Made by a program: the position numbers and the translations under genes. DNA of 64,000 nucleotides from Escherichia phage Murica, in the sequence record NC_041871.1; one strand, written 5' to 3'. Below, in pieces: positions 2,449 to 64,000 of the stretch. Numbering within the stretch: the first letter of the stretch is position 1; every line of letters begins with the position of its first letter. Under the pieces are notes generated by a model. That model was not told the origin of the DNA, ran no database searches, and worked only from the letters and a program-made list of their open reading frames with translations.

Positions 2449-2795
2449 AGAAGTGGATTGTGTGGCTGGATGATTTGAGAGATCCGTCAAATTATGGACT
2501 CCCAGACGCTATTTGGCTGAAGAATTCCTCAGAGTTTATGGATTTTATTAACGATAAGGGAAAGCTCTACAGACGCGTTTCTGAGTGGCATATGGACAAC
2601 GACCTAGGAGAAGTATTCGAAGGATACGATTGCCTATCCATGTTGGAGGAAAAATTTGTATTCGGTAAGCCTCCAGTGATTGACAACGTGAAGATTTTCG
2701 TACATACTTCTAATCCATCGGCAGCTCGTAAATTTATGCTTGCTGCTGACTCATTCAAGAAGTTTGGAATAGAGATTAAACAAAACATCTACTGA
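2445..2795 (+). CDS. hypothetical protein
   Basis: 116-aa ORF overlapping the ligase stop (ATGA); hydrophobic N-terminal strand WIVWLDD; family not identified. Confidence 0.5.
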   Translation: MKKWIVWLDDLRDPSNYGLPDAIWLKNSSEFMDFINDKGKLYRRVSEWHMDNDLGEVFEGYDCLSMLEEKFVFGKPPVIDNVKIFVHTSNPSAARKFMLAADSFKKFGIEIKQNIY

Positions 2796-2803
2796 GGACA
2801 CTT

Positions 2804-3565
2804 ATGCGACGACTGATTATTATCTCCGGTGCTGGTTTGAGCGCTGAATCTGGTATTCCCACTTTCCGATCTGGTAGCACTGCAATGTGGGAGAATTTCA
2901 GCATCGATGAGGTGTGCAACATCCACACCTTTGCCAAGAACTACTATAAGGTGCATGACTTTTACAATGCACGTCGTGTAGCTCTGGGCAGTGTTGATCC
3001 TAACCTTGCACATCTTCGGATCGCTGAGTGGTATTCCCGCTGGTCTGGTCGTGTGATCAACCTTACCACCAATGTAGATGATTTGCTGGAGCGTGCTGGT
3101 GTAAAACATGAAGATATTTTACATGTCCACGGGTATTTGCCTGAAATCACCTACGAAGATGCTGAAGGTAACGATGTAATTAAAAATATCGGATACACGG
3201 AGGTAGATACAGGCAAGTATACCTGGGTTAAGCCTAATGTAGTGTTCTTCGGTGAGGTTGCTCCTAAGTATACAGACATGTATGACCTGTTGACATCTCT
3301 CACAAGCAATGATATGGTGATCCTGGTGGGTTGTTCTAACACAGTTATTAATTTTAACTGGGAATTGTTTCCTGCTACTTGTAAAGGCACAAAACTGCTG
3401 ATTGTAAACAAGTATGACTCGCAGAGTGCAGATGGAAGTGGCATTTCACGTAGCGACCTTTATCAATATGAGGATCGCGGGATCCCTGTATGGTTTAACG
3501 GTGCTGTTGACGCTTTCTCTGATAAAGCATTTATTGAAACTGTAGAAAACTTTATGGAACTTTAA
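2804..3565 (+). CDS. Sir2-family NAD-dependent deacylase/ADP-ribosyltransferase (sirtuin)
   Basis: Sirtuin motifs GAGLSAESGIPTFR, TTNVDDL..HVHG (catalytic His), VFFGE, VGCS, N-x-D; no CxxC zinc module seen. Confidence 0.8.
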   Translation: MRRLIIISGAGLSAESGIPTFRSGSTAMWENFSIDEVCNIHTFAKNYYKVHDFYNARRVALGSVDPNLAHLRIAEWYSRWSGRVINLTTNVDDLLERAGVKHEDILHVHGYLPEITYEDAEGNDVIKNIGYTEVDTGKYTWVKPNVVFFGEVAPKYTDMYDLLTSLTSNDMVILVGCSNTVINFNWELFPATCKGTKLLIVNKYDSQSADGSGISRSDLYQYEDRGIPVWFNGAVDAFSDKAFIETVENFMEL

Positions 3566-6325: not shown

Positions 6326-6796
6326 ATGAAACTTGATAAAAATGTTCAACGAAAAGCTTTCTTGGATATGATCGCATATTCGGAAGGCACAGATAATGGT
6401 AGGCAACCCACTAAGGATCGTGGATACGATGTCATAGTTGGTGGCAAGCTGTTTAGCGATTACAGCAAGCATCCAGGTGTGTACGTTAAGCTAAATGCTA
6501 AACTTACCTCCTCCGCTGCTGGTCGTTACCAGGTTTTGGAGAAGTTTGCTAAACACTACATGGAACAGTTAGGATTGCCAGATTTTGGCCCTGCCAGTCA
6601 GGACAAGATTGCGTTGCAACTGATCCGTGAGTGCAAGGCTCTCGCCGACATTGACGAAGGGCGTATCCACGAGGCTATCCATAAATGCCGTTCCCGCTGG
6701 GCTTCGTTACCTGGTGCTGGATATGGTCAGCATGAACAGAAGATCGAGAAGTTGATCGAGGTGTTTAAAAAGGCAGGCGGTGTTGTCCTTGATTGA
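6326..6796 (+). CDS. endolysin, lambda R-type lytic transglycosylase
   Basis: Near full-length similarity to lambda R as recalled (QRKAFLDM.AySEGTDNGRQ, GYDVIVGG.LF.DYS.HP, GAGRYQ, WASLPGAGYGQ). Confidence 0.9.
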   Translation: MKLDKNVQRKAFLDMIAYSEGTDNGRQPTKDRGYDVIVGGKLFSDYSKHPGVYVKLNAKLTSSAAGRYQVLEKFAKHYMEQLGLPDFGPASQDKIALQLIRECKALADIDEGRIHEAIHKCRSRWASLPGAGYGQHEQKIEKLIEVFKKAGGVVLD

Positions 6797-6799
6797 TCA

Positions 6800-6828
6800 T
6801 TGACATAACCACACGGACGTGGTATTGT
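6800..6828 (+). promoter_or_regulatory. sigma70-type promoter TTGACA-17-TATTGT
   Basis: Consensus -35 with 17-nt spacer upstream of ORF 6860; spacer contains short dyad CCAC-N6-GTGG. Confidence 0.5.
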
Positions 6829-6859
6829 TACCTCATAAAATGTTTAGGAGGGCTTAACC

Positions 6860-7066
6860 ATGAAAGATTTTCTGTTGGCAATTTTGTTCATGGCAGCATG
6901 TCTGGCCTGTGGTGTCGTGTTTGCAGGTGAAACAGCGTATCTTGTCGATGTATATCGGGACAATGGTAAACGTATTTGCCTTTATGAGACAAGTCAAGGT
7001 GAGCTCTACGAGCTTGTGAAACAAGGCGAGGCTGGATCTTGTCCTCGCACCCATTTCTTTGAATGA
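6860..7066 (+). CDS. small secreted protein, possible lipoprotein
   Basis: 68 aa; hydrophobic N-terminus LLAILFMAACLAC with lipobox-like MAAC; directly downstream of the endolysin. Confidence 0.4.
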   Translation: MKDFLLAILFMAACLACGVVFAGETAYLVDVYRDNGKRICLYETSQGELYELVKQGEAGSCPRTHFFE

Positions 7067-7075
7067 GGAGAATAC

Positions 7076-7540
7076 GTGGAAGACGGACGTTTAATGAAGT
7101 CTGAACGCAGGCTTATTGTGCAACTGATCCCAGAAACAGCTTGGTATAATAACCTCCGAAACGCTGTGAAGAAGAGTGAGTGGGATAAGATCCGTAAGAA
7201 GTGCTACAGAGAAGCCAACTACACTTGCGAGGTGTGCGGAGGTAAAGGCAGCAAACATCCAGTTGAGTGTCATGAACTTTACACTTTCGAAGAAGGAGTG
7301 ATCCGGCTTGTCGGACTGATAGCGTTGTGCCCAGATTGTCACACATCGGTGCATCCTGGGTTAGCAAATATCCGTGGAAAGTATGCTCAGGCAGTTAATC
7401 AGTTGGCTAAGGTGAATAAGATCACCAAGGGTATGGCAGAGGCGTATTACCGAGACTGCTTTGCAGAGTGGCGTGAGCTTAGTAAAGTTCCAGAATGGAA
7501 GACTGACTTTTCGTGGATAGAGGGTTACCTTGATGGCTAA
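7076..7540 (+). CDS. zinc-binding protein, possibly HNH-like
   Basis: CEVCGG...HPVECH...LCPDCH cysteine/histidine cluster. Confidence 0.35.
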   Translation: MEDGRLMKSERRLIVQLIPETAWYNNLRNAVKKSEWDKIRKKCYREANYTCEVCGGKGSKHPVECHELYTFEEGVIRLVGLIALCPDCHTSVHPGLANIRGKYAQAVNQLAKVNKITKGMAEAYYRDCFAEWRELSKVPEWKTDFSWIEGYLDG

Positions 7541-7849: not shown

Positions 7850-7882
7850 CAGTTAACTATTTATTAACTAGGAGAACTAGGT

Positions 7883-8191
7883 ATGCTTAAAATTTTTATT
7901 GTTGAAGATAAAGATATCGTCCAGTTGTATGCAAACGAGAATCACAAAGGTATGATTCTGAAGAAGGCAAAAAACCTTCATGAAAACACAATTCAACCGG
8001 GTGATGTAATTAAGATCTGTGGTTATATGATACCAGACTCCTTGATGAAAATAACCCACCACTGGGGGTCTAATCCGTTCCTTTTTGAAAAGTATTGGGA
8101 TGTTGAGTCACTTATTGCAGAGAGTGATGATGCATTTCATTACAGCATCCAACCATCTTGCAGAATAACTAACAGGAGGGGCTTTGAGTAG
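7883..8191 (+). CDS. hypothetical protein
   Basis: 102-aa ORF downstream of a consensus promoter. Confidence 0.45.
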   Translation: MLKIFIVEDKDIVQLYANENHKGMILKKAKNLHENTIQPGDVIKICGYMIPDSLMKITHHWGSNPFLFEKYWDVESLIAESDDAFHYSIQPSCRITNRRGFE

Positions 8192-38262: not shown

Positions 38263-39739
38263 CACACAATTAGCTGCCCGGCTAAAGTGCTGGAGCACCT
38301 ACAATACATCTTTCAACTAAATTTCCCACCACCACAATCACTTACCTTCCACACATGACTGTTTGCTTGTTTAGTGAGCAGTCATGCCTTGACATTCTTG
38401 CCTATCCTGATAAAATTAAGTTCTTCTCTTTTCTTTTACCGAGTAATTCGGGTTTTCTGTTCTCTTCGGTTTGAAGGGGTATGGAGATACACCTGAGTGA
38501 ACATGGTGAACAACCGAACATTTGGCTATGGCATTAGCATGGCGAAGCGGACGGGTGACGAAAGAGGGGCCGGAGGACACCAGTCACTGCCATATGATAT
38601 ATGGGTGATAACCTGAAGAGTCTGAATAAGTGTTTAAGTACCAGTCAGAGGAAAAGGTGAATGGTAGCCGAAGGGGGAGGGGGGTTTCTTGTATCTTTAA
38701 TTTGTATATTATGTATACACTCGTAAACCAATCTCATCTGAATCTGTTTACCACACAAAGTAGATAGGGACAAATATCACCTATTAAACTTGAATTATTT
38801 ATAGAAAATACCACAACACCACTTAAGTCTTTGATTTTACACACAAATCCTACAGATATTCAACCTCTATATTTAACATATTCATAACATATTCCATACT
38901 CTACCTGTCTGATCAATTTACCCAACCACATCCTCCATATTTTCCCTGTCTGTACCACCCCTGCCCCGCCGGGAGTCCCGTCATATCTGGCTTTCCAGCA
39001 AATATCACACCCACAAATATCATTGCCTGAAGAGGGTTTCATCCCATAGTACATGCCTTACCTGAAGAGCGCTTCATACACCACGTAAATTTTTTAATTT
39101 ACCCCCCCTCCCCGCCGCCGGAGTGGTCGGCTTTTCCCACACAGGCCTGAAGAGTCAGCCAGAAATATCTGAACAGGTCCAGTTATACCACGATTTTGAC
39201 CTGACCGACAGGAGTGCTGCCAGGCGGACGGAATGGGAATACTTCTCATTCTTATAATAATTCTCAAATATCGAGGCAGTGAGGCAAATTAATAGGTGAG
39301 GCCGTTCACACAGTGGCACAACATTTGCAATCTATTTTGTGAGGGTGAATGAGAATACCTATCATTGTGAGAACTGTTATCATTACGGGCAATTTAACAT
39401 AATACCCATTATGCGCACCACTGGCGATCCATACAGGGATTGATAACATGAGTTACAGTTTACGCATATAACAATCATATTTCTTACTATTTGTGTGGGA
39501 TATAGTTAGCAGCCGATAGATTAGATATTGACCTGTGGACTTCCAACCGTCTAGACGTCTAAACGCCCACACAACAAGGATTATACATACATTACTGAAT
39601 GTAAACAGGGCCGCAAAAATGCTACCATACCAGATTGTAAATTTTTCATGCAGCACTTGACAAAGAGGAGAAAAACTTGTCTGACACAATATGACATACT
39701 GGGCACATTAAACACACTTTAGACTTAATTGACATGCCT

Positions 39740-39862
39740 GACTGTTTACGCTGTCACTATTCACGCTATTACTATTCACTCCCTTTACTGTTCACGCTCT
39801 TACTGTTTACATGCTTAATGGTTTACATGACCAATAGTTTACATAGCTAACTATTTACATGG
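39740..39862. repeat. array of eight tandem 15-17-bp iterons
   Basis: Head-to-tail units ending TT(T/C)AC(G/A/T) with 15-16-bp period (e.g. ctgtcactattcacg, ctattactattcact, ctcttactgtttacatg, ccaatagtttacatag). Confidence 0.75.
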
Positions 39863-39871
39863 AAATGATAA

Positions 39872-40153
39872 GCCATGCCATTCGTTTGCATGATAACTAT
39901 TAGCAAGTTAATAATCTTTCGCTGGCTATGCCAGGTGACCTTTGGTCACCCCTTCGGGTGTTTCTATGACATAATATAAAAGCAGGGCAACTATTAGAAG
40001 ATCTATAGTTGCCTTGCTTGTTATGTCATGATTAACTAAATACAAGGCAACTATGATCTGATTAATAGTTTGCAAACAAACTATCACGGGGGGTGATGGT
40101 TACTGCTTTTATATTATGTCGCGACTCCGTCGCGCCATGCCATTCGTTTGCAT
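39872..40153. repeat. 262-bp dyad-rich element bounded by exact 20-bp direct repeats
   Basis: GCCATGCCATTCGTTTGCAT at 39872-39891 and 40134-40153; internal inverted repeats GGTGACC-ttt-GGTCACC, GGCAACTAT..ATAGTTGCC, GACATAATATAAAAGCA / TGCTTTTATATTATGTC. Confidence 0.75.
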
Positions 40154-40765
40154 AGTTGCCTTATTGTTACAGATAAAATAATTGTATTGTTAATTATTTC
40201 TTATCTTTCTCTTAGTCATCTAATGATTCCAGTCAGTATAGTAATGTACAGTAAACATTAGACGACTAAAGATTTATATGCTTATAATAACTTACAGTGA
40301 CAATTTCGGACTGTTTACGAAAAATGTTGACACCTGAGCCGATTTATGTTATGCAGTTTACACGAATAATTATTTTATGCAGGTATTGACTATTCCGTTA
40401 TTCTATGGTCGGAATAAATACTTAGCAGTCTATAGAATGGTGACGCTACGTGAATTCTGGAATTTAGTGGCTATAGTTATACCCGATTTTTCACGTAGAA
40501 CACGCTTTTGTGGTTATGTAAGTGTATGACTTATAAAGATTTTTAGTTGTTGACAAGACACTGAAGATATGCATCAGGTTAAATTTTGTGCAATAGCTGC
40601 ATTACGTGCAATTTTGGAAGGAAAAACGTGTAAAAATGGCCCTGCTACCACACAATGAAAGATTATGCAATAGCTATTTTATATGTATGTTTGTACAGTG
40701 TGTGGGATTGATGGCTAGTCAATTATTCCACTTGCCAGGTGGGGACGTTTGTGGTAGGAGAAATA

Positions 40766-40798
40766 CAGACAAAAAGAAAGGGGCCTTTTAAAGCCCCT
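40766..40798 (-). terminator. intrinsic terminator for minus-strand gene 40817-41236
   Basis: Minus strand: AGGGGC-N8-GCCCCT followed by TTCTTTTTGTC. Confidence 0.7.
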
Positions 40799-40816
40799 GA
40801 TAGTTTAGTTAAGAAA

Positions 40817-41705: not shown

Positions 41706-41978
41706 TTACTTACGGCGGCAGAATTCAAGCGTTTTTAATTGATAATCTTCCTCAGCCTGGAGTACAACCGCCTCGATCATTTCGTTGGCATTGTTGAAGC
41801 CATACCCTTTAGCGAACTCGTCCGCACCACCTTCGTGATCATGTTCTGCGTTCATCGCTTCCACAAAATGGAATTCCAAATTGTTGAGGTAGGGGCTTGA
41901 TGTGCCGTCTTCTTTTTCGATGAGATCCCAAATAGCATTAAAACGTGATTCGACTTCTTGATTAATCCAGCTTGACAT
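41706..41978 (-). CDS. hypothetical protein
   Basis: 90-aa acidic ORF with AAGAGAGGAAAA RBS. Confidence 0.45.
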   Translation of the reverse strand: MSSWINQEVESRFNAIWDLIEKEDGTSSPYLNNLEFHFVEAMNAEHDHEGGADEFAKGYGFNNANEMIEAVVLQAEEDYQLKTLEFCRRK

Positions 41979-42061: not shown

Positions 42062-42196
42062 CGGTTTTTATAGTTCTTATATGACAGGCAGGCCTGGTGA
42101 TTGTCTCCCCCTGTTCCCAAGTGCCGCCCGTTTAATAAGAATAGCAAAAGGGGCCGAACAAGTCAACCCCAAAATCAGTACCAAAACACTTTTTAT

Positions 42197-50916: not shown

Positions 50917-51114
50917 TTATTTTTTATTAAACCAGTGGTTGATCTGGCCTTTTGTCAGGGCGCAACGATTAAGCTGTTGCCGGGTATAGCTCTGACCACG
51001 ACGGAATTTATAAAGGCCTTGCCCGTTGTTGATGGTTACATCCACCCGGCAAATCACTTGATCCGTGACCACCTGGCGAGTGTTGCGACGTACTTTGATT
51101 CCGTAGGCGTTCAT
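50917..51114 (-). CDS. hypothetical basic protein
   Basis: 65-aa ORF with AAAGAGGATAAAAAATC RBS; TTGACA-containing promoter-like sequence upstream. Confidence 0.4.
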   Translation of the reverse strand: MNAYGIKVRRNTRQVVTDQVICRVDVTINNGQGLYKFRRGQSYTRQQLNRCALTKGQINHWFNKK

Positions 51115-51458
51115 GATTTTTTATCCTCTTTGTTAATTAGTGCGGTGTTGTTCACCTTGCGATAATAAGAATAACAAGAACTGCCCGAGCTGTCAACCAT
51201 TATGTAAAATTATTTTTTTGGGTAGAATTCTCCAGCCGCCACCCCTGCCAGGTTTGCAAGCTTTCACTCTCCCACCTGGTCAGTTAGGTCCTGCTAGGGC
51301 TGGCCCCGCCAGGTTGCAGCAGTTGACGCACTATGTTAGAAAAATTTTTTGAAAAGTGTTGACAACGGCCCCACCAGGTGGCACAATATACCTATCGAAA
51401 GGACGGCAGGCACCGGTGACGGGGGAGACAACCACTGGGGATGGGCGCTGCATAAAAT

Positions 51459-51477
51459 GAGAACGGTTATCATTATC
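51459..51477. promoter_or_regulatory. Fur-box-like AT-rich palindrome, site 1
   Basis: GAGAACGGTTATCATTATC; 11-nt TTATCATTATC identical to one arm of the Fur box consensus GATAATGATAATCATTATC. Confidence 0.4.
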
Positions 51478-51502
51478 ATTTAAAAATTTATGCAAAAAAT
51501 CC

Positions 51503-51533
51503 TTGCTTTCTTTGTCCTGTGTGATACTATAAT
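51503..51533 (+). promoter_or_regulatory. candidate promoter inside non-coding island
   Basis: TTGCTT-16-TGaTACTAT (extended -10) overlapping TATAAT at 51528-51533; no ORF downstream. Confidence 0.35.
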
Positions 51534-51594
51534 AACAAGCCGGGGCAACAGGGGCCGGGAGACAATCACCGGGCCTGCCCGTTATTCTGCAAAC

Positions 51595-51613
51595 GAGAAT
51601 GATTATCATTCAA
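51595..51613. promoter_or_regulatory. Fur-box-like AT-rich palindrome, site 2
   Basis: GAGAATGATTATCATTCAA; 13-nt AATGATTATCATT identical to the Fur box consensus core. Confidence 0.4.
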
Positions 51614-52215
51614 AATTCTAAATGAGAACTCCTCGCATTTAATAAATTTAATTAGCACGCTAATTACACTCCGTAACAATTTACTATAAAATAGTATCCA
51701 CTAAAATATTCCCATATAGAAATTTTAAAAATCCATTTCTGAAAACGAAAAATCGATTTCGTCCCTAAAAATTTCAGGCCTAGATCCGGAACGATTTCCA
51801 GAAAATCCGATTCAGAAAACGAAAAACAGATCGAGTACTGAGAAATTTATCGAGAAAAATTTTCAGAAAATCCAAGCCCTGAAATGAAAAGTAGATCGAG
51901 TACCTGGAAAGCTGCACCGCAACTTCAAGATAGTGGTTAGATTGTTACCATAGAAGGTCAAGGGTAAGTGGAGGAAGTTCTAGTAGAGGGAGGTTAGCAT
52001 GTGTGGGAAATCTATAATGGTGGCCTGGAATATGGTGCAAACGATAGGATGAGTTATTCAGCTTGTCGCGCCTACTCTGAAAAATCCATTTTAGTTTTCG
52101 ATCCATTTTCTGATTTTCTAAGAATTTTAAAATATCCGGCCCGGTGAAATATCAAAAGGAGGAAATCCATTTTAGAAATCCTCCTTATACTTGATATGCC
52201 AGGAATTTTCAAGTA

Positions 52216-52545
52216 TCAGCTGTCTTTGTTTTTAGGTTTGTACATGCGCAGAGGTATGGTCTTTGTAACATTCCATTTCCTCAACCCTTCCCAGCTCCAG
52301 TTGTGGGCGTGATACCCGGTTATGCATGCACTGCTGGCGTGATCATAAGCATAAGAGAACGCTATGTGCACCAGGTGGGGCCAGTCCTTCCACGGCTGTG
52401 GACCGTAAGCCTTTCTCCAACACCGACACAAACTAATTGTCTCAAGAATAGGGAGAATAACAATTCCATATACCACCACCAGAATGGTCAGTGCAATGAT
52501 TGTCAGGAAGACATACCCTGCAGTTGAAATGATGATCTCTGTCAT
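52216..52545 (-). CDS. membrane protein
   Basis: N-terminal hydrophobic segments IIISTAGYVFLTIIALTILVVVYGIVILPIL. Confidence 0.45.
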   Translation of the reverse strand: MTEIIISTAGYVFLTIIALTILVVVYGIVILPILETISLCRCWRKAYGPQPWKDWPHLVHIAFSYAYDHASSACITGYHAHNWSWEGLRKWNVTKTIPLRMYKPKNKDS

Positions 52546-59821: not shown

Positions 59822-60192
59822 TGATCGGTCTCCTTCTTGTTAAGTCTGAATACTGCAATAATAGCATTCCCAAGGTGCAGTGTCAAATCATTTCCAAGAT
59901 ACCACAACATTCCACGGTCATCTTTAATGAAAGGGTAACAATCTGGTGCCTTCCAGACATTGTACACTTTCCCAACCTGAAAGAAATCAGGCCCTGTTGG
60001 GATTTTGGTGCCAGGCCACACTTGAGATACCTGAACACACTCCACCTGCATAATAACAGGGATAGTCATAGATGTAAATGTTTTTGTTGGTTCTACTACC
60101 ATAAAAATCCCCTCTTTGCTCAACAGCACCTCCCTGTGCTGATAGTTTACATTAGTGACAATCACCCCAGTTCCGACCACACAAGTATTCAC
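59818..60192 (-). CDS. hypothetical protein
   Basis: 124-aa ORF directly downstream of the polymerase gene. Confidence 0.4.
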   Translation of the reverse strand: MNTCVVGTGVIVTNVNYQHREVLLSKEGIFMVVEPTKTFTSMTIPVIMQVECVQVSQVWPGTKIPTGPDFFQVGKVYNVWKAPDCYPFIKDDRGMLWYLGNDLTLHLGNAIIAVFRLNKKETDQ

Positions 60193-62929
60193 CTGTGATC
60201 TGGAATGGAACGCCCATCATTTTAGAAGCTTGCCAGAAGCAATGCACCACCATTTCACCCACAGGGCTCCAGATAAGTTCAAGCTTTCCGTCATCGTTCA
60301 GGATAGGATCGTACACCGTGTTTCCGTCTCTGTCAACCACTTCGTTTCCGTTTTCATCCTTGCGTGCCTTTTTGTACTTATGACCGTCAAACACATGAAG
60401 TTTGGCCTCCTGCTCTGCCTTAAATGCTTCCAATTCTTCAATTGTGTCGAAGGTGTACACAGTCTTATACTTAGGCGTGTCAGGGACCTGAAGTTGGTAC
60501 TCATCATGGTAATAAATAATACGACGAACACCTTCATCGTACCACCCACGCTTCACCATTTGGTGGTGCATGAGTATCCCAACTAAGTCACACAACGATG
60601 CACCACCATTTTGTTGGTATGCATTAAGTAAAGAGTGTTTAGATCGGGTCCAGATAGCATGACCATCAAAAGAGTAGATAAACTTCTTACCCGTTGCTTC
60701 CCAGAATTTCTCCAGATCCTCTTTACGCCCTTTAAGACCAGGGTTGGCATCCCAAAGCGCATCGATTACCCTTTGCCCCAACTCTGGGGAGATATCCAGC
60801 ATGTCTGCAACTTTATCTTTTTGTGCCCCATACATAACCCCGTACGTGATAGGTTTACCGTCGTTACGAGACACCTCTCTACCTGCTACTTTCGTATATG
60901 CCTCAGCATTGTTTTGGTGGGCATCCCCGTTACTTACAACATCGTAATACAGGCCGTTGTCGAACTCAAAGGCACCCCAAGCCCCGATAAGCTGCTCTAA
61001 GTTGGACCCGTCAATACCGATCTCAAAGTATCCTGGAGGAACACCCCACAGACTGCGCATCTCTTTACCCATAACCACTTTAGGAGATGGTTTAGGCATG
61101 TTTGCACAAATACTGTGTTTCTGTCGGGAAGTGTTTGTTAATCCAGAACTTTTAGCAGGAAGCTTATGGTCAATCTTCAAACGTGGGTGATTAAGAAGAC
61201 CAGTATCAACCTTATCCTCCTTGATTGGATCAAGGACCGATCTGCGGTTTCGCAATGATAACCACAAGACAATATCTTTAGCCATCTCTCCGTTCAATTT
61301 TTCAAGATTTGGGCATAGGTGTCCAAACGTATCTTTCAGCTGCGGAGAAGTAATAAGTGCTCTGGCTTTTCTACGTATTTTCCCGAATACTTCCTTTTTA
61401 ATCCTTTCGGAGTTAGGAAAGCTTCGGAACTTGTGCACGGTTGTCTGAAACTTAGCATCAGTTTTGTTCCAGAAGTTGATAATCAGGTCACAATACTCTG
61501 ACTCTAAAAGCTCGTCCATGTATGCATATACTCGTGCATCAACATCTGCATCAGGTAGAGCTTTCTTCTTGCTGTCTTTAGTTACATCCTTAGTTCTCCA
61601 CATTGTCGGAAGCCAACCAGCACTGATCAGGTATCGCTTAATGTCGTCCTGATTGCTGATTTTCATAGGTATCTTGCAGTCCGGCATTCGCTTCTGCTGT
61701 AGATCACTTATTGCCTGATCCATCAGCTCTTTAGGTAAAGGTTGTGGTGTGGAAGTGCCCTTAATATAGCCTCTCAAGAAATCAGCCATCTTATCAGGGT
61801 CTTTGCAGCCCATCTCTTCACACCATTTTATCCCCATCTTGCTGACATCTCCTGTGGAGGTAAATGCTCGCTTAGGCGGGGCTTTGAACTCCAAAGCACT
61901 CATGTCCACAGGATAGCCAAGCTTATCTTTTAACCATTTCCAACCATTGTTGGAGATTGTCCCATCTTGGTTAAACGGCTTTTCAGGGAACTTGGGCCGC
62001 TGAGACATTGACAGCTCTTTTAAAGGAAGTTGAGGTTCAACACGATCAGCGATTTCTTTCATCCACGCATCGCAACGGTCACGTAAAGCAATAGCTCCAT
62101 CTATGTCGAAGTATACACCCTGACGGGCCTGCAGCTCCATCAGGAAGTGCTGCAGCATGCCTCGGCGTAATGCGTTCTTCCAGGTGATTTTCTTGAACCC
62201 TTTCGGCTTCTCTTTGGCTGGATCGTACATAAAGTTCTGCATGTCAGATTTGCCGTAGAATACACCTTTTGATTCCGCTACCAGCTCTTTCCAGAGCAGC
62301 TCCTGGATGATAACGTCCTCGAATACACGATCCACATACTTCCACAACGGAAGATCGCGCCAGTCATCAATTTGAACTTTCTGGTTACCAAGGGCGTAGC
62401 CCCATGCCATAAGGCCGTGAGGACCAACAGGCTGCATTTTCTTAGTAACCGGGTTGAATACAGAGTCCGGACAACCTTTTGGTAAAGGGCGATCAGGCCA
62501 CAAGATTCTGCTCATCGCCAACGTATCAAACAGGTTAACCTGGTGGTCGTTGATAGTCCCCATGCATTTAGGATCACGGAACATATCAAAATGAATACCG
62601 GATAATCTTTCCATCAGCATAAAGTCATAACTGTAGCAGTTATGGCAGTTCAAAGCTGTTGGTGACCAGTCGGAATTGCCTGTAAGCCAACCTTCCAACT
62701 CCGAAAAATCTGCTATGCGAACTTCAAAATCTTTATGAAGAGTTTTCTTTGCCAGAATAAAGTTCTTAGCCTTCTCTATATCCTCTTCGGAGTAGTGTGT
62801 GCGGTCATTTAGAGGAAGGAACAGCATAAAACGGTTCTTATTCAGCTCTTTAAACAGGCCGCAGTGATAATAAAGATCTGGATCTTCCAGCAAACCGGAT
62901 GACTCAAAGTCGAACGACCACATGCTCAT
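60152..62929 (-). CDS. DNA polymerase, family A, with 3'-5' proofreading exonuclease
   Basis: 925 aa; exo motif SFDFESSG near N-terminus; motif B RNDGKPITYGVMYGA; motif C YYHDEYQ. Confidence 0.9.
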   Translation of the reverse strand: MSMWSFDFESSGLLEDPDLYYHCGLFKELNKNRFMLFLPLNDRTHYSEEDIEKAKNFILAKKTLHKDFEVRIADFSELEGWLTGNSDWSPTALNCHNCYSYDFMLMERLSGIHFDMFRDPKCMGTINDHQVNLFDTLAMSRILWPDRPLPKGCPDSVFNPVTKKMQPVGPHGLMAWGYALGNQKVQIDDWRDLPLWKYVDRVFEDVIIQELLWKELVAESKGVFYGKSDMQNFMYDPAKEKPKGFKKITWKNALRRGMLQHFLMELQARQGVYFDIDGAIALRDRCDAWMKEIADRVEPQLPLKELSMSQRPKFPEKPFNQDGTISNNGWKWLKDKLGYPVDMSALEFKAPPKRAFTSTGDVSKMGIKWCEEMGCKDPDKMADFLRGYIKGTSTPQPLPKELMDQAISDLQQKRMPDCKIPMKISNQDDIKRYLISAGWLPTMWRTKDVTKDSKKKALPDADVDARVYAYMDELLESEYCDLIINFWNKTDAKFQTTVHKFRSFPNSERIKKEVFGKIRRKARALITSPQLKDTFGHLCPNLEKLNGEMAKDIVLWLSLRNRRSVLDPIKEDKVDTGLLNHPRLKIDHKLPAKSSGLTNTSRQKHSICANMPKPSPKVVMGKEMRSLWGVPPGYFEIGIDGSNLEQLIGAWGAFEFDNGLYYDVVSNGDAHQNNAEAYTKVAGREVSRNDGKPITYGVMYGAQKDKVADMLDISPELGQRVIDALWDANPGLKGRKEDLEKFWEATGKKFIYSFDGHAIWTRSKHSLLNAYQQNGGASLCDLVGILMHHQMVKRGWYDEGVRRIIYYHDEYQLQVPDTPKYKTVYTFDTIEELEAFKAEQEAKLHVFDGHKYKKARKDENGNEVVDRDGNTVYDPILNDDGKLELIWSPVGEMVVHCFWQASKMMGVPFQITGEYLCGRNWGDCH

Positions 62930-62987: not shown

Positions 62988-64000
62988 TTAAAAAGGTGTT
63001 TCATCATCCTCAAAACCAGGGACCGGATCAGAGGATGGATCATCGTATTGGAGGTCTTCCTGCGTGTCAATAGGCTTGACAGTGGGTGTTACAACCTTAT
63101 CAGCCACAACCTTGCCCATAGGTGTTTCTACAACTGCATGCTCCTGATCCTCAAACATAGCCTGAGGTCTCCAAACAACCTCCCCACCTTCTCCGTCTGT
63201 AAACATCTGCATTTCTTTGTCCCAGTACCAATTACTGGCATCATGGAACTTACCTGTATGCGGATCCATAACTAAAGTGTCAGCAATACCTAAAGTTTTT
63301 GCTGGACGGTTTTTAAGACCTACCAGACGGACACGTCCACGAGAACGATCCACCATTTCTTCGGCCTCGACACCTATGACTACCCAACTCAACTGTTCAA
63401 GCCCAGCCGATCCTCGCAAATTCTCTTTTCGCACAGGATACCAGAAAGGTAATGGGTTACCATCCTTGTCCTTAGGGGGCACAATCTCTGTACGTTTGAG
63501 GTGAGCGATCACCAAGATAAACACGTTAAACTGCTTACAAAACGCAGCCAGTTGGGTCATAGCCATGTCCAGTTCTTTTCGCTCATCCTTAACATTAAGC
63601 CCTGAAATTACCATGGACAGGTGATCCAGCACAATATAACGACAATGGTACAGGCAAACCATTTGCTTAAGCTTGGTAATCAACTCGTCCACTGGAATAG
63701 ACCCGAAATGTTTGAACACTTTGATTTTTCCAGCTTTTGCCCATGATTGGTGAATCTCTGCGTGTTCTTGATCAGTTAAAAACTGGCTAGGATCTTCAAC
63801 AAACTCTTTAACATCAAACCCTAACTGGTTTGCATACAAGGAGTTAATTGCTTCCTCTGGGTCCTCCTCAAGATGAATCATGCATAGACGATCATCCTCT
63901 TCATAGTCATCGGCCTTCGGGCATGTCGGGTCCATTAGGTATCTTGCAATACAGTGTTCCAGTTTTTTAGCCACGGTTGTTTTACCGCCGCCTGATGGAC
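62988..64000 (-). CDS. DnaB-like replicative helicase, partial (N-terminus beyond window end)
   Basis: Reading frame continues upstream of ATG 63974 through Walker A SGGGKTT to the window edge; Walker B IVLDHLS; acidic C-terminus ending DDETPF. Confidence 0.75.
   Translation of the reverse strand, partial: PSGGGKTTVAKKLEHCIARYLMDPTCPKADDYEEDDRLCMIHLEEDPEEAINSLYANQLGFDVKEFVEDPSQFLTDQEHAEIHQSWAKAGKIKVFKHFGSIPVDELITKLKQMVCLYHCRYIVLDHLSMVISGLNVKDERKELDMAMTQLAAFCKQFNVFILVIAHLKRTEIVPPKDKDGNPLPFWYPVRKENLRGSAGLEQLSWVVIGVEAEEMVDRSRGRVRLVGLKNRPAKTLGIADTLVMDPHTGKFHDASNWYWDKEMQMFTDGEGGEVVWRPQAMFEDQEHAVVETPMGKVVADKVVTPTVKPIDTQEDLQYDDPSSDPVPGFEDDETPF

Follow-up and report, generated by a model that had tools for sequence, protein, structure and literature searches.

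A conserved non-coding island in the early region of rV5-like phages combines tandem promoters with Fur-operator-like palindromes and is a candidate replication origin

We analyzed a non-coding island of ~1.1 kb (positions 51115–52215) in a 64-kb stretch of the genome of Escherichia phage Murica (NC_041871.1), an rV5-like myovirus of the genus Vequintavirus; the whole 64-kb stretch is hereafter called the window. We read the island as a control module of the rV5-like early region, both conserved and non-coding, which host RNA polymerase would transcribe from two tandem promoters directed against the flanking genes. Each promoter is followed by a short GC-rich leader and a palindrome resembling the operators of the host iron regulator Fur. 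Among the functions considered, we tentatively place first a DNA replication origin that is activated or primed by transcription, served by a T7-like replisome, and wired to host Fur. We infer this function from the arrangement of sequence elements described below.

Tandem promoter-leader units

The island lies inside a long minus-strand block of small early genes. The replisome genes belong to the same block, 8–12 kb away, and comprise a family A DNA polymerase (DNA_pol_A, 60152–62929) and a DnaB_C/gp4-type helicase (62988–63974), whose counterparts in rV5 are gp228 and gp230 (PMC3606486). The central elements of the island are as follows.

51359–51387, plus strand: promoter P1, TTGACA-17-CACAAT, TG-extended; conservation 0.93 in the genus.
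51394–51455, plus strand: unit U1 (type A), a GC-rich leader; nhmmer E-value of 3e-18; conservation 0.97–1.0.
51456–51480: Fur-box 1, overlapping 19-mers AATGAGAACGGTTATCATT and AACGGTTATCATTATCATT at a 6-bp offset; 19.2 and 18.7 bits; 15/18 match to AATGATAATNATTATCATT.
51503–51533, plus strand: promoter P2, perfect −10 TATAAT, weak −35 TTGCTT, 19-nt spacer; conservation 0.97–0.99.
51539–51591, plus strand: unit U2 (type B), a GC-rich leader; nhmmer E-value of 2.6e-26; 79–86% identity to phages of other genera.
51592–51640: Fur-box 2, AACGAGAATGATTATCATT; 19.7 bits; 16/18 match.

P1 is preceded by an A/T-rich UP-like element (51329–51358), and the hexamers of P2 are identical in all Vequintavirus copies. 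The leaders, ~55–60 nt each, contain GAGACAA(C/T)CAC, with GAGACAAnCAC as the invariant core. In U1, the core GAGACAACCAC (51425–51435) ends 23 nt before GAGAAC; in U2, the core GAGACAATCAC (51559–51569) ends exactly 25 nt before GAGAAT. The core segments GGGAGACAACCACTGGG (51423) and GGGAGACAATCACCGGG (51557) are 88% alike and 134 nt apart (repeat family D8), and the palindrome segments (51455–51487 and 51591–51623) are 73% alike and 136 nt apart (family D3). The tandem units, shared core, and AT-rich palindromes reported in a preliminary description of this DNA all lie where it had placed them.

The same geometry recurs throughout the related phages. Measured from the core, GAGAAY follows after 25 nt in each of 25 distinct type-B copies and after 23 nt in each of 9 distinct type-A copies, and a co-oriented sigma-70-type promoter accompanies all 42 distinct unit copies (~45 loci), its −10 ending 23–37 nt upstream of the core. 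Conservation of the units and repeats equals or exceeds that of the neighboring genes (flanking genes, 0.87–0.98 identity). Taken alone, neither the 13-mer core nor the GATCGAG motif described below is enriched in the window; the significance of these short motifs lies in their conservation across genera.

Both units of the preliminary description are present, and a third copy lies outside the region that it covered.

42078–42166, minus strand: unit U3; nhmmer E-value of 2.7e-7; core GGAGACAATCACC; own promoter TTGACT-17-TATTCT.

U3 has no Fur box, and a second promoter and the gene at 41706–41978 follow it. This GAGACAATCACC unit occupies an ordinary intergenic gap, where a terminator-like hairpin overlaps the −35 of its promoter.

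Palindromes resembling Fur operators

To score the palindromes, we used a Fur matrix derived from 19 natural sites, which themselves score 8.8–22.3 bits (median, 17.0). Ten DNase-footprinted E. coli K-12 operators were taken from the coordinates in Table 3 of Chen et al. 2007 (PMC2189734), shifted to NC_000913.3. The matrix sites were chosen by consensus match within published footprints, which makes the matrix partly circular; the scores of the natural sites are therefore optimistic, a bias that works against the phage boxes. The three best scores of the entire 64 kb fall within the island, at 51592 (19.7 bits), 51456 (19.2 bits), and 51462 (18.7 bits). Whereas the island holds three matches of ≥18 bits, even one is found in only 0.1% of 5,000 island shuffles, and the 19-bp palindrome pattern has 4 matches in the window versus 0.05 expected.

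We then compared the boxes with the Fur reference palindrome (GATAATGATAATCATTATC, or AATGATAATNATTATCATT in the 9-1-9 register). Out of 18 positions, the best 19-mers of the footprinted operators agree with it at 12–16. The agreement is 15 and 16 for the window boxes and 17 for the box that is commonest in other genera, which scores 22.9–23.0 bits, above all 19 natural sites. The phage box consensus AATGAGAATnATT(A/C)TCATT is 1–2 positions off the Fur palindrome AATGATAATnATTATCATT. Genuine Fur site clusters show a 6-bp offset (Chen et al. 2007, PMC2189734), which we find at 51456/51462 and at 51592/51598, the latter involving an overlapping weaker site (51598, 12.2 bits); a degenerate third copy (AATGAGAACTCCTCGCATT, 51622–51640) scores 7.5 bits. 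Other islands carry 1–5 matches of ≥13 bits each, with runs at 6-nt steps in the phAPEC8-type islands and in that of L015, a viral contig described below. The GAGAAT half-site lies within the proven iucA operator (PMC10318462) and also in the proven operators of fepB and fecA. We found no Fur homologue encoded by these phages.

In two respects the boxes depart from bacterial practice. Promoter overlap characterizes 83% of the Fur clusters of E. coli (PMC2189734), whereas the phage boxes overlap no predicted −35 or −10 and are positioned at +53 to +86 of their own promoters (P1, P2), with Fur-box 1 ending ~23 nt upstream of the P2 −35. Moreover, G at position −4 is near-invariant in the phage boxes but a minority base in the Fur matrix, which leaves room for another protein that recognizes a similar site. 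We therefore call the palindromes Fur-operator-like and treat binding by Fur as a prediction. The suggestion in the preliminary description that the island might be a protein-binding platform agrees with the top-grade operator scores and with the conservation of the box arrays downstream, the binding itself being likewise predicted.

Easily melted DNA and lineage-specific repeat arrays

The following elements lie beyond U2.

51601–51750: candidate unwinding element, the second least stable 150-bp duplex of the 64 kb (−170.5 kcal/mol versus a mean of −199 and a standard deviation of 7.6).
51680–51707: weak candidate promoter P3, TTTACT-16-TAAAAT; −10 kept in 7/8 relatives, −35 poor.
51710–51910, plus strand: three co-oriented A-rich repeats (family D1), period 65–74 bp; conservation 0.89–0.995.
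51904–52083: poorly conserved spacer, identity 0.67–0.81 in the genus, the least conserved segment.
52082–52139: conserved right block (0.95–1.0) with AAATCCATTTTAG and an AT-rich palindromic sequence (families D4, I2, and I7).

The 62-nt repeat units start at 51710, 51784, and 51849 (spacing of 74 and 65 nt) and end in (G)ATCGAG boxes, namely a degenerate TCGATTTCG at ~51752 and GATCGAGTAC at 51829 and 51894. The sequence AAATCCATTT(T/C) recurs at 51729, 52082, and 52163, and the right block contains an inverted, iteron-like GAAAATGGATCGAAAAC on the minus strand (52094–52110). The plus strand is strongly A-rich at 51700–51900. The A-rich direct repeats of the preliminary description, including GATCGAGTAC and ATCCATTTT, were located as it had noted.

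Comparable arrays of 3–4 plus-strand GATCGAG boxes occur in seven other loci (Certrevirus, Seunavirus, Mydovirus, and unclassified phages; at least four genera), spaced 63–78 bp apart except for one gap of 107 bp in phiTE. They lie inside the islands, with almost none in the flanks. Other lineages have other boxes in this place: CTCAAG in W70 and two IMG/VR phages, ATAGTTAC in L009-type loci, and AACTTTAAAT in phAPEC8-type loci. A constant architecture combined with a lineage-specific box sequence would be expected if the boxes co-evolved with a DNA-binding protein of the phage.

Proposed model of a transcription-started origin

These elements suggest the following scheme. Host RNA polymerase would start at P1 and P2, opposing the direction of the flanking genes, and would transcribe the short G-rich leader with its GAGACAAnCAC unit. 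It would then meet one or more Fur dimers 23–25 bp further on, together with the most easily melted DNA of the region. Either the transcript or the opening driven by transcription could allow a T7-type replisome (family A polymerase and gp4-like helicase-primase) to load, while a lineage-specific phage protein bound to the three downstream GATCGAG repeats would mark the site. A Fur roadblock that stops RNA polymerase would account for the fixed spacing, and Fur occupancy might tie firing or transcript length to the host iron status. NrdAB and NrdDG, the iron-dependent ribonucleotide reductases, are encoded by rV5 (PMC3606486), and a role for Fur as an iron gate is plausible since these enzymes need iron.

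Two known designs invite comparison. In the primary origin of T7, the tandem promoters phi1.1A and phi1.1B are followed by an AT-rich region. Likewise, the two tandem promoters of the island read into the most AT-rich and least stable DNA of its neighborhood, and the phage has a T7-type replisome. Unlike those of T7, the island promoters are of the host sigma-70 type because the phage is without an RNA polymerase of its own; the island also adds Fur-type operators, a conserved leader, and box arrays, and it sits among oppositely oriented genes. In T4, oriF and oriG combine a promoter with an unwinding element and are primed by an R-loop, and oriE combines iterons with early transcripts. As in T4, lambda, and plasmid origins, a promoter is followed in the island by easily unwound DNA, and the direct repeats are found only at the locus and vary between lineages. 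In contrast to T4 and iteron origins, the repeat period is 63–78 bp rather than ~20 bp, and we found no DnaA boxes, no skew switch, and no initiator gene.

We rank an origin first, although with considerable reserve, because tandem opposing promoters, a leader, unstable DNA, locus-specific arrays, and a nearby T7-type replisome, in phages with no known origin, together resemble the T7 and T4 designs. Promoters directed into an easily unwound AT-rich element and at least three direct repeats specific to the locus are both present.

Several observations weigh against an origin. Cumulative GC skew has its maximum at ~38 kb, the point at which the genes change orientation, and shows no switch at 51–52 kb. 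The rV5 genome paper lists ORFs (open reading frames) at this place and reports that a search for the origin failed and that skew changes followed the direction of transcription (PMC3606486); since skew follows gene orientation, it is uninformative as an origin marker. The single DnaA-like sequence, TATCCAC at 51695, is lost in relatives, leaving no conserved DnaA box, and the repeat period of 65–74 bp (63–78 bp across loci) is long for classical iterons. Phages commonly have AT-rich DNA between their genes, and such DNA need not be an unwinding element; nor is Fur known to have an established role at any origin. Among the small neighboring proteins, searches returned no Pfam family and only PHROGs of unknown function, and thus no initiator gene. 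U3, which is co-oriented with the genes, lacks a Fur box, and lies in an ordinary gap, is not explained by the origin model.

Finally, the window contains a second, larger ORF-poor island at 38300–40800, where the plus- and minus-strand gene blocks converge; it probably matches the “non-coding” box of the rV5 genome map. It has a strong plus-strand promoter (TTGACA-16-TAAAAT, 38389–38416), CCTGAAGAG repeats, GGCAACTAT/ATAGTTGCC inverted repeats, four Fur-like boxes (39232, 39252, 39348, and 39366; up to 14.5 bits), approximately nine tandem ACTRTTYAC boxes (39745–39860), and two of the three least stable 150-bp windows. As this island offers the same ingredients, the one at 51–52 kb need not be an origin, or need not be the only one.

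Distribution of the module among phages

The 1.1-kb stretch shares 96.6% identity with Escherichia phage LL12. A total of 120 phage records match the stretch, 105 of them over ≥80% of its length, and all are rV5-like Vequintavirus myoviruses. With sensitive blastn, segment 51555–51646 was also recovered at 79–86% identity in other genera, bringing the number of records to 249; these include phages of Klebsiella, Cronobacter, Proteus, Serratia, Enterobacter, and Pectobacterium, as well as phAPEC8-like coliphages. Some 16–17 of the records (MG065644, MG065690, MG065646, and others), 92–98% identical to the region, are titled “Campylobacter phage” with C. jejuni as the host; these unannotated records seem to be coliphages of the rV5 type whose host was mislabeled.

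Synteny is kept in every locus examined in Certrevirus, Seunavirus, Mydovirus, Phapecoctavirus, and unclassified Vequintavirinae. In these genera, the minus-strand block is broken by a gap of 0.8–0.9 kb carrying opposite-strand elements in the order small gene, promoter and RNA-1 (an RNA-like element, see below), promoter and GAGACAA unit, one to five palindromes, promoter, and repeat array. The rV5-type phages have neither the small gene nor RNA-1 but a second GAGACAA unit (type A) in their place. Overall, the layout is conserved in >200 phage genomes.

Upstream of the unit promoter, immediately before its −35, we also observed GTAAA-N5-GTAAA in Certrevirus, Phapecoctavirus, Seunavirus, and Mydovirus (L003, ~2425–2455; L004, ~2480–2510; L018, ~1420–1445; and L017); it is absent from the window. 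This sequence would be a perfect CpxR-type box, and it may represent a second host regulator wired into the module.

Searches of IMG/VR, 241 million metagenome records, and the genomes of 100,044 species returned the same phage groups, a few chance matches, and one further match, L053. The metagenome scan contributed 3 chance matches besides the known phage groups, and in the species' genomes L052 proved to be a chance co-occurrence with a bacterial Fur box. A host origin of the element was rejected, as 5,426 E. coli genomes gave a single weak partial match (E-value of about 1). Apart from these matches, the module was absent from the bacterial genomes searched.

One instance outside these groups, L015, is a viral contig of 34% GC in which the unit and a box at 25 nt are followed by at least 11 further tandem boxes. 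These AAATGAGAATnnTTnTCA boxes (2790–3045) have a period of ~17 bp, and two clusters (6781–7190 and 7882–8114) show Fur-matrix matches at successive 6-nt offsets; in total, there are 22 matches of ≥13 bits in 13 kb. One L015 protein is 56–58% identical to proteins of Acinetobacter phages AM24, Mithridates, and Bestia, and another search result was a single sub-threshold match of an L015 protein to a domain of unknown function (DUF). None of the L015 ORFs matched the window. The module appears to have moved between unrelated lineages, that is, Vequintavirinae and Stephanstirmvirinae (phages of Enterobacterales) and an Acinetobacter-phage-like contig.

It is conceivable, though we would not rely on it, that what has spread is a portable module consisting of a sigma-70 promoter, a ~60-nt leader with the invariant GAGACAAnCAC, and a high-affinity Fur operator exactly 23–25 bp on. 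Fur would then be a structural part of it, a roadblock or decoy by which the 3′ end of the nascent RNA or primer is fixed.

Boundaries and non-coding status of the island

Three further features delimit the island.

51168–51196, minus strand: sigma-70-type promoter, TTGACA-17-TATTCT, TG-extended, 10/12 match; would restart the operon at gene 50917–51114.
51216–51330: GC-rich spacer in which CCCYGCCAGGTT is present twice (repeat family D11).
52140–52186, minus strand: intrinsic terminator, predicted to end the upstream minus-strand operon (gene 52216–52545).

According to the preliminary description, clear promoters in the island read on the plus strand only; this is contradicted by the good minus-strand promoter at 51196–51168, on the left edge. 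Together with P1, it makes up a divergent pair linked by inverted repeat I1, and a ribosome-binding site, AAGAGGA, lies upstream of the ATG at 51114. Within this divergent promoter region, at ~51248–51254, the window and LL12 are without a minus-strand gene of ~170 nt (FFH2 ORF178, rV5 ORF197) that is present in most Vequintavirus genomes and forms an insertion in L002 and L025–L028 relative to them. The presence or absence of this small gene is an indel polymorphism.

The hairpin AGGAGGA-N15-TCCTCCT (52148–52176) exists as previously described but is best read as the minus-strand operon terminator rather than as part of a small RNA. On the minus strand, it has a folding energy of −19.0 kcal/mol and is followed by UUUUGAUAUUU; in the plus direction, it is weaker (−13.7 kcal/mol) and followed by UAUACUU. 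The phAPEC8 annotation has a terminator at the equivalent place. Because this terminator and the restart promoter bracket it, the island would be insulated from flanking minus-strand transcription. The wider early block, including 52216–52545, contains numerous sigma-70 promoters whose GC-rich spacers can form hairpins, as well as intrinsic terminators, of which several are bidirectional.

The island is non-coding. It had been called ORF-free, which does not hold literally, as mechanical ORFs of up to 92 amino acids cross it; what does hold is that no frame stays open across the unit copies. Of all frames anchored on the core, on both strands, the best is open in only 5/28 copies. Homologues of the unit in other genera differ by 1–2-nt indels, the conservation being at the nucleotide level. 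The annotators of rV5, FFH2, FV3, and Pr121LW called some island ORFs but disagree on strand and extent, and the poorly conserved spacer holds a 17-amino-acid ORF (ATG at 51999) and a 48-amino-acid ORF (GTG at 52001) that are annotated in some records.

The leaders show no conserved RNA fold

Structure prediction, proposed in the preliminary description as a check on a small RNA, gave no support for one. RNAalifold found no consensus structure in 22 type-B units, and single-sequence energy z-scores ranged from −1.85 to +0.41 (12 representatives). Under the two-helix (P1/P2) model judged most plausible, 63.5% of cells pair, compared with 62.2 ± 1.3% in shuffles (reached by 97/500), and the covariation score is 0.147 versus 0.118 (reached by 16/500). 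Some seemingly compensatory changes in the outer helix (A-U to G-C, L006/L007 versus phiTE/L045) failed the formal test, and the L009, L043, and L014 lineages contain uncompensated mismatches. What is conserved is the primary sequence, ACAAnCACC ... TGC..G..AT, and the geometry.

Neither U1 nor U2 is followed on the plus strand by an intrinsic terminator (hairpin and U-run). No Rfam family matched the window or 8 related loci at the gathering score, with only chance-level hits (E-value of ≥0.49), and the window contains no tRNA or tmRNA. The homologous island of phiTE suggested a pseudo-ToxI antitoxin mimic, a candidate we rejected because there was no similarity to the ToxI repeat sequence used as the query. 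A conserved RNA fold in the units is therefore without support. Of the plus-strand non-coding transcription envisaged in the preliminary description, the promoter component stands, with a promoter at 42/42 units from which transcription would be expected, but a discrete structured small RNA lacks support.

The element RNA-1 of other genera behaves differently. It is ~95 nt long, lies just upstream of the unit behind its own promoter (L003, 2323–2418; L018, 1314–1408; also L017, L019, L022, L004, and others), and consists of CGCCACCCCACGGCGnAAAGGCGGGGCTAAC, a variable hairpin, and GGAAGGTGGATCGCCGGTAG. It has a consensus fold of −20.6 kcal/mol in which two pairs show compensatory changes, and a pseudoknot (CCCC/GGGG) is possible. 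RNA-1, which matched no Rfam family, is a candidate new phage RNA.

Alternative functions

The island could instead be a locus for trans-acting non-coding RNAs, a reading we consider possible but rather improbable. The promoters P1, P2, and that of U3 would make short early RNAs whose invariant single-stranded GAGACAAnCACC would base-pair with a host or phage target or be bound by one, for host takeover or counter-defence, and the A-rich downstream transcript could sponge an RNA-binding protein. Such a locus would fit the promoter upstream of every unit copy and the apical-loop position of the core in most single-sequence folds, and the strongly A-rich plus strand suits the sponge. It also explains U3 better than an origin does, since three copies are dispersed over the genome and one lies outside the island without a Fur box, and in other genera the syntenic upstream slot is taken by an RNA-like element with a consensus fold. 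The fold tests, however, speak against it, with no consensus structure, z-scores of −1.85 to +0.41, pairing close to that of shuffles, and uncompensated mismatches, as do the lack of a terminator after the units, of an Rfam family, and of any trans target of the core in the window other than its three copies. An RNA locus also explains the lineage-specific arrays, and the invariant 25 nt that separate the core from a DNA palindrome, worse than an origin does.

Resemblances to known phage RNAs are likewise partial. Like HK022 put and lambda nut, the units are ~55–65-nt elements located right after early promoters, several per genome, with U3 in a gene leader; unlike them, they have no conserved two-hairpin fold, sequence similarity, or Rfam match, and two of the three copies point away from genes. 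As with P22 sar, lambda oop, and the phiTE pseudo-ToxI, short plus-strand units lie in a minus-strand block, and phiTE has a homologous island. In contrast to sar and oop, the units are not antisense to a gene because the terminator insulates the island, no terminator follows them, and there was no similarity to the ToxI query sequence.

Control of host iron physiology as the function in itself seems unlikely to us, although it is compatible with either an origin or an RNA locus. Here, the boxes, multiplied as phage genomes replicate, would titrate Fur and relieve the repression of host iron uptake; alternatively, bound Fur would block polymerase in an iron-dependent manner or regulate the promoter that follows downstream. 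Titration of Fur by multicopy boxes is the principle of the Fur titration assay (FURTA). The boxes, at 15–17/18 versus 12–16/18 for footprinted operators, outscore most of these and score at or above the operator median, and they share 6-bp offsets with the enterobacterial boxes of iucA, fepB, fhuF, entC, and cir, as well as the GAGAAT half-site with the iucA, fepB, and fecA operators. Islands carry one to five boxes, and the 22 matches in L015 make the strongest case; the phages have no Fur homologue, and their ribonucleotide reductases need iron. In addition, box and unit occur together in phage groups with no detectable shared proteins (over the regions compared), which is suggestive of a universal host factor. 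On the other hand, unlike bacterial boxes, those of the phages occur in virulent phages, avoid the −35 and −10, keep a fixed distance of 23–25 nt from a non-Fur element, and have G for T at −4 almost invariably, which is atypical of the Fur matrix. Two boxes per rV5-type island would be a modest decoy, and the GAGACAA unit and repeat arrays are left unexplained.

A packaging (pac) or other DNA-processing site, with the terminase small subunit or a similar protein on the GATC boxes as at P1 pac, is very improbable: the left array and the inverted right box do flank a poorly conserved spacer of ~180 bp, and the boxes contain GATC, but the island, as part of the early region, is distant from any terminase gene seen in the window, sites of this kind have no use for tandem promoters or Fur boxes, and the start points of the relatives' records are not clustered here. 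Least credible of all are ordinary small genes as annotated (rV5 ORF198/199, FFH2 ORF179–181, and LL12 gp189), for although GenBank records annotate mechanical ORFs of 43–92 amino acids and the ATG at 51999 has a GGAGG 6 nt upstream, even the best frame stays open in few unit copies, annotators conflict, the ORF-bearing spacer (51904–52083) is the least conserved segment, and conservation across subfamilies is nucleotide-level with indels.

Significance

Origins and regulatory regions that carry sites for host factors are a known kind of element; within the literature we searched, this module, its Fur-type operators, and its spread are new. Our literature searches found nothing relevant on an rV5-type origin, on phage Fur boxes, or on transcriptomes of these phages, and no description of Fur boxes in the non-coding regions of virulent phages. 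One immediate consequence concerns annotation: many GenBank records place hypothetical ORFs in this region, and these are unlikely to be genes.

The rV5-, phi92-, and PVP-SE1-like phages are among the coliphages with the broadest host ranges and are widely used in therapy cocktails, and the island offers a compact candidate of ~0.8 kb for both their origin and their early regulation. A portable module, if real, would couple early transcription or origin firing to iron status, or would strip Fur from the host regulon. Should Fur bind the palindromes, this would be, as far as the literature was searched, the first strictly virulent phage with operators for the host iron regulator in a conserved non-coding control region, and it would become possible to test how such phages sense or rewire the iron physiology of their hosts, as in the iron-limited gut.

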